Origin: Eledone cirrhosa
Lineage: Eukaryota
DNA: 64,000 nucleotides
Direction of reading: 5' to 3'
NCBI GenBank assembly: GCA_964016885.1
Contig: OZ024750.1
Coordinates: 6,014,001-6,078,000, forward strand
This document shows positions 926 to 50,180 of the stretch, in pieces. The stretch's first letter is position 1, and each line of letters opens with the position of its first letter. The translations under genes were made by a program, and so were the position numbers. The notes below the pieces were generated by a model, which saw only the letters and a list, made by a program, of their open reading frames with translations, was not told where the DNA came from and ran no database searches.

Positions 926-1118
926 AAGAAAGGAGTCAGGACCCCGATGGCTGAGCTCCGGCCGTTTCGACAGCTATTTCTGAACTAGCTGTCGAAACGG
1001 CCAGAGCTCAGCCGTCGGGGTCCTGACTCTTTTCCTATTACCCACTCTACTACCCTAAGTATCGAGTACTCTGGTGCGTTATGGTCCACCTGGTTCCTTA
1101 CCTCACTTCCTTCAATTT
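926..1118 (+). mobile_element. Family A non-autonomous Penelope-like fold-back insertion in (TA)n
   Basis: Inverted arms ~926-976 and ~986-1037, tail to 1118. Contains a hammerhead 3' half GAAA-CGGC-CAGAGCTCA-GCCG-TC (994-1016). Homologous copies at 2058, 16454 and 42775. Confidence 0.8.
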
Positions 1119-1237
1119 TATATATATATATATATATATATATATATATATATATATATATATATATATATATATATATATATATATATATATATATATG
1201 AAATATAAGAATCAAAGAACAGCTCAAAACATTATTG

Positions 1238-1284
1238 TGCTTACAGCTGTTTCCTCCAAACCGAGGTTTGGATTCTTCGGAGCA
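1238..1284 (-). ncRNA. Type I hammerhead ribozyme (U4C core variant)
   Basis: Minus strand: TGCT-CCGAAGA-A TCCAAAC CTCG GTTTGGA G-GAAA-CAGCTG-TA/AGCA. Helix III ACAGCTGT is a palindrome. Lies between (TA)n tracts. Confidence 0.8.
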
Positions 1285-2057
1285 ATTTATTAATGCATGG
1301 ACAGTTATATGACCTCCTTTTCAGCCGAGAGACATACCAACACATATTCAAACATACTATATATATATATATATTTATATATATGTATATATATTTATAT
1401 GTATATATGTATATATATATATATATATATATATATATATATATATATATATATATATATATATATATATATGTGTGTGTGTGTGTGTGTGTGTATGAGC
1501 ATGTGTTTGAGTATGTGTGTGAGTGTGTGTGTGTGAGTGTGTATGTGAGTGTGTGTATATATATTTGCACCCAGGTATTAACAAACCAACCAACCAAACA
1601 ACCAACAAAAAACGTACTCGACGCTATAGAGGAGCATACTTCATATCCACAAAACTAATAAGAAAAGAACATTCCTGTTGACCTGAAGGTTAGACCTATT
1701 CTAGGTTATATTTATGGTACTCATTGTAAATATCTCATTTGTTTTTTCCCATCTCGTCCAGTATTGGAGATATTGCAAAAATCCTATATATTCTCATTTC
1801 ATTGCGTTCCTATCTTTCTGTATTCTAACTCAATTCAATGCAATTCTACTTTTCGATACATTATAATATAGCTCTAATAAATGATATATATAATCTATAG
1901 AACACTCCAATAAATGTTTTCCACCGAATTACATTGTTGTATGTGAGTAGTTCTTGTTTTATATATGCATACATATATACATAAATATTCGTAAATAACA
2001 TTATACACAAATTTATATATATATATATATATATATATATATATATATATATATATA

Positions 2058-2222
2058 GTACACAGAGAAAGTGTGGTAGGAAAGTAGGTGGACCATAAAG
2101 CACCAGAGTACTCGATACCTAGGGTAGTACAGTGGGTAATAGGAAAAGAGTCAGGACCTCAATGGCTGATCTCCGGCCGTTTCGACAGCTATATCCGATC
2201 AGGGGTCCCGACTCTTTTCCTA
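2058..2222 (-). mobile_element. Family A copy
   Basis: Reverse-complement homologue of 986-1118, with a short inverted end GGGGTCCCGACTCTTTTCCTA; (TA)n on both sides. Confidence 0.8.
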
Positions 2223-3100
2223 TATATAATATATATATATATATAAAATGTTAGATGTGTAACTACTATATGTATGCATATATGTATATGATAGGTTACC
2301 TTAATGAAGATTACTATAATAATAGTTGATATCTAAAATTAAACAGTTTAATAAATTGTGTAAATTACTGGTAACGGGAAAATATCTATGTCCACTTTTT
2401 CCCGTCTTATTTTTTCATCTTATTTTTTTAATTATAGTTATCTGCAGTGCGGTGAAATAAAATATATATGTCTGTGTGTGTATGTGCGGTGTTTGTGTTT
2501 AAAATTTATACAGATGTAATTACACAAATTCACATGCAGAAAAAATATATACACACGTAATAATAGAAAAAAATGTATATATATTCTGTTTGATATTAGC
2601 TCCGTTTACAAATTCATATTACTCGGCTGCTTGTCTGTGTCATTTCAAACAAGCACTCTTTTGAAGTCAACCTATTTTTTTATTACGTATCTAAATGTTC
2701 AGAACTGAACTCATTATTGTAGAGATGTGGTGGGCAACAACGTAAAGAGAGCACTAATATCATATAGGATTGTTTTACTTGTATGGACGCGGTAGGTTGT
2801 GTGGCGAGGAGGAGAATAAACAGTAGACATAACATGAGTAGAGAAAAGGGTGCGTATATATACAAATATATTAGAGAAAGTGAGAGAAAAAGAAGAAGTA
2901 TGAAGGAACGTAGAGACATTCGCTCAGTGAGAGACATTTATGGAAAGTCAAATACACATTTAGTTAAAGAGCAACCGAGTACAAGTAAAATATATATAAT
3001 CCATTAATATGACATGGGTAAATCTGAAATGTCGAAAAGTATATTTCTGGCCTTGACCAAGATGTTAAGATAAAAAATAGGTTATTATTATCCTTCAAAG

Positions 3101-3282
3101 GGTGGTAGATTGGCAGTATCGGTTGAGGGTCGGACGCCATGCTTAGCAGCAGAGAGTTGTGGCCCTTCATGTTCTGAGTTCAAATCCCGCCGAGGTTAAT
3201 TTTGCCTTTCATCCTTACGGGGTTGATAAAATAAAGTACCAGTAATGTACTGGGTAATTGTTGGCCTTGTGCCAAAAAGTAG
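3101..3282 (+). mobile_element. tRNA-derived SINE family 1 (Meta-like central domain)
   Basis: A-box-like TGGCAGTATCGGT, B box GAGTTCAAATCC, core GCCTTTCATCCTTACGGGGTYGATAAAATAAAGTACCAG; about 20 copies in the window. Confidence 0.88.
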
Positions 3283-4444
3283 CTTTTGACTATACGTCAA
3301 AGAAATTGGCGGTGAATTGTCAGAATCGTTAGAACGTCAGATAGAATGATTTCCGGCATTCGTTCCAACTCTCAGATTTTAAATACCTCCGAGGTCAACT
3401 TTGCCTTTCATCCATTTAAGGTCGATAAAAAGGTACCAGTCTAGTCTTCCTCACTTCTGTTCTTTCATTCTCTCTATCCTATTCTGGAAGAAATCTGTTG
3501 TATTCAGATCTGGAGAGGAGATGGCCACCATTAATGTACTGGGTAATTGCTGGCCTTTTGCCAAAAGTAGAACAATTGTTAATGAATCTATCTAAAACTA
3601 CGTGGGTAAACGGTAGTACCCTATTTAAAACGAATCTGTGTGTAATTTGTCGTAGATTTATGTCTTATTTCTACAAGTTGAGTGACTATGCAGAGACGTC
3701 CTCGTTGGTTCGTAAATTTACTAACATTAAACTGATTTTAATTCAGCTATAACCCTGGCTATCACCCAGAAATTAAAGACATCTACATTGGAATCGTTTA
3801 TCATGGATTATAAACAATTAAAAAAGCCCAATAAGTGTGGAAATATTTAAGGAAATTAAATAAGACCAACTTCAATGTAATTCACCGTGAAAATAATTTA
3901 TCATCCACTAAAATTAATTACAATTTCATTTAAATGAATTAAATCTCTCACCTCCTTCTATCTAAATGATAGAATATATCTACTCCTTTATATATACTAC
4001 TACGTATTGTTAAATGTCAGATTGATCATTTAATAAGATTTAATAAGAAGTTGAGGATGAGAATAAGATAATAGAATCGTCTCTAACCATCTCTCTCTCT
4101 CTTTCCATACATAGATACATACACACGTACATACATAGATACATAGATACGTACATACATAGATACATACATACGAACATACATACATACATACATACAT
4201 ACATACATACATACATACATACATACATACATACATACATACATACATGATGGCTGCCCCCTCTTTATCGAGTATGGCCATTGCACGATATAACATTATT
4301 AATAACTATTAATTAATTCTATTGTGCAATGCCAGTGCGTGAACATTTTTTTAAAAGTGAGGAAAGACTGTGCACTGAGCCAATCCCACTCTCTAAGCGA
4401 CAATAGCTATAACCCGAAAAGAAGAAAAGATAAACATCATCGGT

Positions 4445-4598
4445 AACTACTGAGCAGAGGGTTTTATGTCGGAGTTATCCCAATTTCCTTTGTCAGGGCC
4501 TTCTCCTAGAAGAATGCCTGACAAAGGCTAGAGGTCCTTCACTCCCAGTGGTTTAACCGCGCGATCGGGTGTCCAGCCCGACTATTTCTATGGCCCTG
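4445..4598 (-). mobile_element. Fragment resembling RTE-associated 5' UTR/SINE sequence
   Basis: Minus strand has AGCCTTTGTCAGGCA...TCTAGGAGAAGG, similar to a motif I recall from RTE-linked elements; 11-bp hairpin at 4487-4527. Confidence 0.35.
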
Positions 4599-49131: not shown

Positions 49132-49176
49132 GCTTACAATGTTTCTTCCTTACGTAACCGTAGGATTCGTCAGAGC
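49132..49176 (-). ncRNA. Minimal type I hammerhead ribozyme
   Basis: GCT-CTGACGA-A TCCT ACG GTTA CGT A AGGA A-GAAA-CATTG-TA/AGC, in a 120-bp insert within (TA)n; resembles 1238-1284. Confidence 0.78.
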
Positions 49177-49259
49177 TATAAAAGGGGTTTGATTGGTGTT
49201 ATGGACTATATATATATATATATGTGTGTGTGTGTGTGTGTGTGTATTTATTAAAATAA

Positions 49260-49333
49260 CAGATTAAAGTTTAAGCATAGAATCGCTGCTTTCACCCTTA
49301 ACGTGATCTTCTGAAACTAACAAAGTCAATCTG
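49260..49333 (-). ncRNA. Family C hammerhead variant with bulged, extended helix I
   Basis: CAGATTGA...AGTTT-CAGAAGA-TCAC GTTAA GGGT-GAAA-GCA..TGC-TT/AAACT-TTAATCTG. Confidence 0.68.
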
Positions 49334-49387
49334 TAAACGCAGAAGTGAATATATATATATATATATATATATATATATATATATATA

Positions 49388-49595
49388 TGCAGGTTTAGCT
49401 GGCCTCCTCCAAGGTATATCTCGTTGGAGGTGTCTTGGGTGATTTAATGATAGGGACCCCAGTCCCTATCATCTCATTTCTACAGCTGAGTAAACTGAAG
49501 CAACGTGAAATAAAGTGTCTTGCTCAAGGAAACAACACATCACCCGGTCCGAGAATTGAACTCACAACCTTTCAATTGCAAGCCACGCGCCTTCA
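49388..49595 (-). mobile_element. SINE family 2 variant with a different 3' tail
   Basis: Homologous to 53695-53922. Confidence 0.85.
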
Positions 49596-49891
49596 CTGAC
49601 TATATAGTACAATGAGAACCCACATTGAGTTCTACCAATTCTTCCGTGCATCTGTTTACGGCCATTGAAATGTTTTTGTTATGAATATGTGGTACATTAT
49701 ATCGATCAGTTAAAACTCTTAGACTCCCTATTGAGACAGACTGTTTATTCGAGGAACTGTAAAAGTCTCAAACACACACACAATTGCACACCATCAAATA
49801 ATGAAAAATCAATGAGAGCGAATCTTAAATAGTTGTATGGAAATCTAGCAAATGGGGTAAGATCTTTTGTTTATTATAAATTATAGATATA

Positions 49892-49946
49892 CTGCTATAT
49901 ATATATTTCGGTGACAGCCATCATTGTCTGTGACCTCTTCAGGCAG
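49892..49946 (-). ncRNA. Type I hammerhead ribozyme
   Basis: CTGC-CTGAAGA-GGTCACAG ACAATGATGG CTGTCACC-GAAA-TATATATA-TA/GCAG; helix III is an (AT)5 palindrome. Confidence 0.82.
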
Positions 49947-50054
49947 GCCGAATTGGTGTGGGAAAGACAGGTACACATGTTGTTGAAGTGTGTTTTACGC
50001 CGTCGATGTGTCCAGCTCCTGATTATGTTGTTATTTCTATGAGGAACTGGAATC

Positions 50055-50180
50055 AGAGGGCTCGATAAGGATAAATATATATCAAATATATAAGAACCAT
50101 AGAGCAAATATTTATTAAAATAACAGATTAAAGTTTAAGCAAAGAATCGTTGCTTTCACTCTTAACGGGATCTTCTGAAA
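50055..50180 (-). mobile_element. Family C copy
   Basis: Matches 42323-42446, including the CAGAAGA core. Confidence 0.85.

Follow-up and report, generated by a model that had tools for sequence, protein, structure and literature searches.

The window analysed here is a stretch of 64,000 nucleotides from the genome of Eledone cirrhosa (OZ024750.1, positions 6,014,001-6,078,000), which measures 3.0 Gb and is rich in microsatellites. A masked comparison of the window with itself revealed several short repeat families inside (TA)n runs, many of whose copies are asymmetric inverted pairs. Judged by their sequence, these mirror-image repeats are 3' fragments of Penelope-like elements (PLEs) of the Hydra clade. 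Their arms end at two fixed points, the inner boundary (B) and the tail end (T), and paired arms generally combine one end of each kind. Positions within a family are numbered relative to B. The copies in the window, with their hairpins and one ribozyme-like core, are as follows.

924-1113: family A head-to-head insertion, with an inverted arm (minus strand) ending at B near 926 and a direct arm (plus strand) with an 80-nt tail
1044-1067, plus strand: hairpin 1 of family A, 5 nt behind B
2062-2223: family A insertion, with a tailed arm (minus strand) and a short arm (plus strand) ending at B (2222)
9040-9175: family G insertion, with a tailed arm (minus strand; hairpin 1 at 9098-9063) and a short arm (plus strand) ending at B near 9172-9175
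16392-16430, plus strand: family C tail fragment, starting at +50 and ending at T
16448-16590, minus strand: unpaired, tailed family A arm, with its 5' end at the 5' pile-up point of the family
22098-22512: family B insertion, with an inverted arm ending at B (22098, 1-nt TA overlap) and a tailed direct arm; hairpin 1 at 22447-22465
23586-23675, plus strand: family C tail-only copy, starting at B
30896-31961: family E insertion, with an inverted arm ending at B (30901) that reaches further 5' than the adjacent direct arm; its direct part is a partial tandem reading through T, with hairpin 1 at 31323-31346 and hairpin 2 at 31441-31461
42287-42520: family C insertion, with a tailed arm (minus strand) and a short arm (plus strand) ending at B (42520)
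42769-42967: family A insertion, with a tailed arm (minus strand) and a short arm (plus strand) ending at B (42966)
45161-45345, minus strand: unpaired family D arm, ending at B (45171)
47029-47449: family D insertion, with an inverted arm ending at B (47039) and a direct arm with a 91-nt tail; hairpin 1 at 47366-47390
47253-47319, plus strand: candidate type I hammerhead-like core of family D (CTGATGA, GAAA, a palindromic short stem III, TA), unscored by Rfam
49245-49352, minus strand: unpaired family C arm, ending at B
50055-50180, minus strand: family C arm, with its 5' end at the pile-up point (50180) and its 3' end cut inside the tail (+52)

An earlier note on this DNA had described short arms of family A that stop at TTCCTA near 926, 2222 and 42966; all three do end at B, but the copy at 926 reads TTCTTA. 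The family C arms at 42520 and 49245 and the family D arms at 45171 and 47039 likewise end at B, although those at 45171 and 49245 are unpaired and thus not the short arm of any pair. The ends that it had called similar at 9175, 22098 and 30901 are boundaries of the same kind in families G, B and E, whereas its outermost point, 50180, is the 5' end of a family C arm. Tail-only copies had been said to start at B, which holds for the copy at 23586 but not as a rule. The starts of tailed arms are scattered through the tail without a sharp peak, from -2 to +62 in family A and from -7 to +53 in family C (only 3/47 at -7 or -6), and 3/8 unpaired tailed arms without core start at most 7 nt from B.

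End positions were mapped against natural reference slices for all copies in the window and in loci L001-L320, with duplicates and locus-edge copies removed; loci picked on tail or length were set aside for the unbiased counts. Among core-bearing arms from loci chosen irrespective of tail, 293/314 end at B or T, comprising 98 + 81 = 179/192 in family A, 53 + 23 = 76/84 in family C and 19 + 19 = 38/38 in family D, where the B peak spans -2 to +8 because BLAST extends into TA-like letters. Several of the remaining 21 arms are B or T ends behind small deletions. The earlier note had proposed plotting all ends and looking for two sharp peaks, and this distribution has them in place of a continuous spread. 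Raw reads from three restriction-site-associated DNA (RAD) runs that carry the same species label switch to (TA)n at both family C points, 2049, 2093 and 2678 times per run at B and 520, 606 and 753 times at T, and read depth falls more than 10-fold beyond T. Reads that start at B (694-754) have a single upstream sequence in common and come from a separate composite repeat. A related family with the C hairpin 1 but a different tail was encountered at L193, at L130 and at read ends in L171 (4718 and 4754); the fixed sequence that precedes it at B in many reads resembles a Helitron 5' end.

The two end points are distributed one to each target strand. Among 218 head-to-head pairs, 177 combine one B with one T end, 3 have two ends of one kind (same-type), and in the other 38 an arm is damaged or reads through; the unbiased subset has 114/135 B+T pairs and 1 same-type pair. 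These counts were judged by binomial tests in which free choice would make about half of the pairs same-type, and they bear out the earlier proposal of a Penelope-type origin and of two fixed 3' ends, each assigned to one target strand. The same-type pair of family D is a read-through ending at B (L166). This end had been predicted beforehand, as had those of the read-throughs in L250 and L142, and all three lie at B as predicted; the L171 read-through ends at T, which was known before the prediction, and L247 and L028 were not readable. In long loci (n = 40), both outer ends can be read in 24, and 22 of these are B+T. Of 20 young long C loci, 12 can be read at both ends and all 12 are B+T; another 3 have a single arm, and in the other 5 an end has been lost. 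In L363 (2330-2429 and 6175-6230) and also in L077, a full-length C insertion is centred in a palindrome whose two flanks are inverted copies.

All insertions lie within (TA)n runs, with a median of 34-40 nt on each side, and in L070, L079, L099 and L283 insertions of different families are stacked within one run. For a comparison with an empty allele, contigs were aligned to window positions 42640-43330, but they stop short of spanning the insertion. A search for paralogous empty sites of 204 insertions returned 18 cases, which are mostly self-matches, and the clean ones already carry (TA)n. Exact core words match the genome 3,798 times for family A, 32,699 times for C and 15,295 times for D, and an exact family A tail word 26,599 times, all with 0 control matches.

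ORF (open reading frame)-bearing parents were located for families A (L250, L254, L255, L260, L270, L235), B (L373, L376), C (L171, a 712-aa frame with YRDDG) and D (L165, an 808-aa frame with YRDDG) via match pairs 3-4 kb apart. Their layout runs core, B, hairpin 1, tail, T, hairpin 2/leader, ORF, 3' region and core, followed by B or T. The earlier note had set an internal start site apart from one at the tail end; because the parent continues past T into the second hairpin and the ORF, T is not the RNA end and both sites are internal. Pseudo-long terminal repeats (pLTRs) in direct or inverted order, with an optional tail, occur in L165, L171 and 38 further long loci. Families C and D were placed by protein motifs, A and B by partial ORF similarity, and E, F and G by layout.

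The C and D proteins carry Hydra-type motifs, namely RLRWR/RLRWI, in which the third letter is not the K of RWK, and SDKT, with DKT for DKG. Their translations also contain the CxCx5C linker and the CxxC and CxH motifs, without CCHH, when compared with the description in PMC8557442. The flanks examined show the (TA)n insertion typical of this clade. The C protein has at least 1,201 homologues, and its predicted model (pLDDT 93.3) yields TERT structures as the seven best fold matches (ranks 1-7), at low TM-scores of 0.25-0.34. A single ORF with a telomerase-related reverse transcriptase (RT) was thus found, as in endonuclease-positive PLEs. A C-terminal VYKC...YIG motif and the order of strands and helices suggest a candidate GIY-YIG endonuclease, and one homologue carries PF01541; neither Pfam nor the whole-protein fold search returned a GIY-YIG match, and sequence searches of Pfam and PDB with the C and D proteins returned no family or match. 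A dimer prediction for residues 6-500 of the C protein, in which the alignment was not used, gave no verdict at a score of 0.00. By eye, a candidate hammerhead core is canonical in families D and F and a CAGAAGA variant in C, and none was recognised in A. Rfam, applied to the window and three pLTRs, reported no ribozyme family and only sub-threshold hairpin matches.

At all 12 mapped end sites, in 7 families, a bulged hairpin is predicted in the RNA 2-7 nt behind the site, in agreement with the closeness claimed earlier. Its 4-bp stem ends in a C-G pair, the 3' side carries a T-H bulge (11/12), and the upper stem varies. Hairpin 1 stands behind B in families A-G, and hairpin 2 behind T in A, C, D and E; copies extending past T covered families A-E. 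The letters of the stem change in pairs (ACTC/GAGT, GCTC/GAGC, GTTC/GAAC, GCAC/GTGC); a MAFFT alignment of the 12 hairpins was out of register. The motif was defined on the five first hairpins and the other seven were found afterwards, against a background of 0-1.2 matches per kb.

The 5' ends of arms pile up at the A of an initiator-like word, at about -60 in family A, -74 in C and -169 in D, and read depth in family C falls about threefold there. A putative transcription start, suggested by this word, is the likely cause; initiator-like words in pLTRs are described in PMC3846280. Among 88 non-templated cases, a G that a cap might have left precedes the pile-up point in 19, a count with no clean control. 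A splice acceptor behind the pile-up was considered and rejected, the non-templated starts showing no common upstream exon; in Drosophila virilis an intron ends at that ribozyme position (PMC4209133), so a splice origin is possible for templated copies. Ribozyme-cleaved linear RNA was rejected as the main template, as the 5' starts do not cluster at the predicted cuts (-28 in C, -44 in D).

Among 30 arms that hold the C ORF start, 10 begin between +77 and +132, around T and hairpin 2, compared with 1 in each of the next three 56-nt steps; the query covers starts only up to +133. Of 10 tailed long arms with a start close to the leader, 9 match one unit in length to within 13 nt, which suggests, more tentatively, that long copies derive from a circle or tandem. 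Moreover, a long arm at T needs a hairpin 2 behind it, which T-ending genomic copies lack, so its template would be circular, tandem or jumped. PLE circles have been proposed (PMC4209133). In L092 (4796-4960), a family A core is joined straight behind an RT-coding piece with the rest of the unit skipped, possibly by a template jump.

The reading favoured here, with a probability of about 0.6, is that two enzyme molecules on two hairpin copies, each priming from one nicked (TA)n strand, produce the B+T insertions. The RT-endonuclease would bind each predicted hairpin, copying would start 2-7 nt on its 5' side, with 1-7 nt of UA pairing only setting the register, and the two cDNAs would be joined at their growing ends. 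Most short copies may represent run-off at the 5' end of a linear transcript, and long copies may come from a circle or tandem; both of these steps are more tentative. A more specific version falls somewhat short of even odds: programmed double priming, in which one RNA offers two hairpin landing sites to two enzymes, so that the tail, the inverted pLTR and the junction arise together, linear transcripts giving the short copies and ribozyme-made circles the unit-length ones. The arms agree in subfamily in 68/69 clear pairs, and shared minor alleles exceed those of shuffled partners in subfamily A2 (40 vs a mean of 13.9, maximum 21.1) and in D (24 vs 6.0, maximum 19.5). This agreement fits one source RNA, and it also fits conversion or separate bursts.

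Several observations weigh against this account. The second hairpin of family B is a plain stem-loop with a paired change that lacks the bulge and the upper stem, and a mismatch occurs in hairpin 2 of the D reference copy. Minimum-energy folds contain the drawn stem at 7/12 sites and part of it at 2, and they adopt another fold at 3. Shared minor alleles are not raised in A1 (2 vs 2.4) or C (0 vs 0.1), and conversion from arm to arm could be the source of the excess elsewhere. Among the long loci, L178 is T+T and L164 is ambiguous. Unpaired arms are common (37/126 insertions in A, 48/79 in C and 10/25 in D) and end at B roughly as often as at T, so not every insertion shows a second priming. 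For one RNA to yield two copies of its core, strand displacement would be required. In the published Poseidon_Ac system, start sites are alike on both strands and lie within a stem-loop, not before it (PMC11167929). The end sites and the pairing are known from sequence, and the role of the hairpin is a prediction.

The earlier note had attributed the end sites to annealing between a nicked (TA)n primer and a UA patch. Its two fixed sites do exist, and at 11/12 of the mapped sites the end has at least 2 letters compatible with a TA run, but the overlap amounts to only 1-7 nt (3 and 3 nt at B and T in family A, 4 and 3 in C, 7 and 2 in D) and longer patches are skipped. The inner site of family B has 1 nt of overlap though a TTATA patch sits 2-6 nt further on, D ends at T with 2 nt while 3-4-nt patches in its tail go unused, and young C copies end at +88, passing over 3-nt patches at +76, +79 and +82. 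Almost no ends fall at the 7- and 8-nt patches within the C tail; these longest ones lie in a hairpin stem, where they would be blocked, and a few rare ends do fall at other small TA patches. Pairing that picks the sites, with the hairpins shielding rival patches or acting otherwise, is an unlikely alternative. Annealing alone gives no ground for one B and one T per insertion. About as improbable is that the ends are set after synthesis, the endonuclease recognising hairpin-forming DNA and making staggered cuts, at B and at T, that resolve a longer intermediate. The tail has been ascribed to "EN-mediated resolution" (PMC8557442), such cutting would also yield one B and one T from the same two signals, and the Penelope tail has been reported to be needed for endonuclease recognition, as cited in PMC11167929. 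On the other side, reverse transcription of Poseidon_Ac starts at the tail boundaries in vitro (PMC11167929), the polarity in which the two outer ends meet the target is that of primer extension, and the upper stems contain G-U type pairs, as suits RNA.

Inverted PLE junctions have been interpreted in the literature as products of self-priming (PMC3846280); here, a single cDNA from T would fold back and be copied up to a block at B. Many junctions are near-perfect palindromes, the arms belong to the same subfamily, and in 85/177 B+T pairs the 5' ends lie within 8 nt of one another. These symmetric pairs sit at the 5' pile-up point of the family, which explains them without folding. In 64/177 pairs the untailed arm extends beyond the tailed arm on the 5' side by more than 8 nt and holds sequence missing from it (the tailed arm reaches further in 28/177), and in 26/177 the tailed arm starts inside the tail and the arms have no sequence in common, although a few of these rest on short local-alignment partners. 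The two arms of L362 each exceed 3 kb and have different 5' ends. Because 26 pairs share nothing, the data contradict folding back as a general route, though some symmetric pairs could have arisen in this way; overall it is a poor candidate. Least credible by far is that short arms began with tails, which slippage or a deletion spanning from the TA patch at B to the adjoining microsatellite then removed. All insertions do lie in unstable (TA)n runs, but such loss predicts T+T and B+B pairs, 3/218 pairs are same-type, and the rule is kept in the youngest copies at 97-99% identity.

The proposed double priming at hairpins has parallels in other systems. In L1 twin priming, two primings from the target strands create a head-to-head inversion, with a second primer that anneals variably and arms that do not overlap. 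Its geometry is like that of the 26 non-overlapping pairs, whereas here both sites are fixed and internal and the arms usually overlap. In telomerase, an RNA element beside the template fixes where copying is positioned; the predicted C protein fits TERT best, but these elements carry a predicted endonuclease and no repeat addition has been shown for them. Among PLEs, the Hydra clade described by Craig et al. 2021 (PMC8557442) includes Hydra-1_Obim of Octopus bimaculoides and has (TA)n targets. The present elements resemble it in their single ORF, the RW and DKT motifs, the CxCx5C linker, CxxC/CxH and (TA)n targets, as well as in partial tandems, an inverted 5'-truncated copy and a tail that is often one-sided. 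They differ in the length of the tail (80-120 nt vs 30-40) and of the unit (3.3-3.7 kb vs less than 3 kb). For Poseidon_Ac (Frangieh et al. 2024, PMC11167929), the tail lies between two internal start sites, and both target strands are cut and extended. An AT-rich target, little primer homology and dispensable ribozyme cleavage are held in common, but Poseidon_Ac belongs to another clade and has both sites in one AC-rich stem-loop inside the ORF, whereas here the sites precede the ORF, each lies ahead of its own hairpin, and they are split one per strand.

Other repeats share the window. A SINE (short interspersed nuclear element)-like family of about 180 nt has at least 15 copies in it, including 3097-3282, 6831-7020, 25667-25833, 35936-36337, 39235-39430, 59734-59935 and 62705-63450. 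Another family occupies 8570-8909, 42700-42761 (adjoining the family A insertion at 42769) and 61926-62248, and its copies elsewhere run into a ribozyme-like word. An 84-nt unit is repeated in four tandem copies with 99% identity at 43331-43667.

Collectively, the feature is real and partly as first described; the element class is known, and the proposed mechanism is new in its detail. Already published, in passages of the papers cited above, are the one-sided tail, the inverted pLTR, (TA)n targeting, Hydra elements in octopus, two internal starts and extension on both strands. For the one-of-each rule, non-overlapping arms, twin hairpins and unit-length stops, no paper was found in the openly searchable literature, with subscription papers and some supplements outside reach. 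Passages of PMC8557442 contain no one-of-each count and no twin hairpin, and "hairpin" and "stem-loop" have 0 matches in its supplement; passages of bioRxiv 10.64898/2026.07.22.740005 and PMC13282606 have nothing on these points. PMC8557442 names the origin of inverted ends and one-sided tails in PLEs as an open question, for which the published readings are endonuclease resolution or self-priming, and the present counts show that, in these families, self-priming is not the general route. The predicted hairpin offers a compact RNA signal that can be mutated and from which a precise prediction follows for either strand. Family C is a young family, with 150 ORF starts at 95-100% identity and about 30 open frames of at least 706 aa (counted by eye) among the matches listed, and therefore offers a ready substrate for the published in vitro assay (PMC11167929). 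With exact words present 3,798 to 32,699 times, the process has shaped much of this genome, and programmed double priming, if true, would be a form of retrotransposition without classical second-strand priming at the target end.

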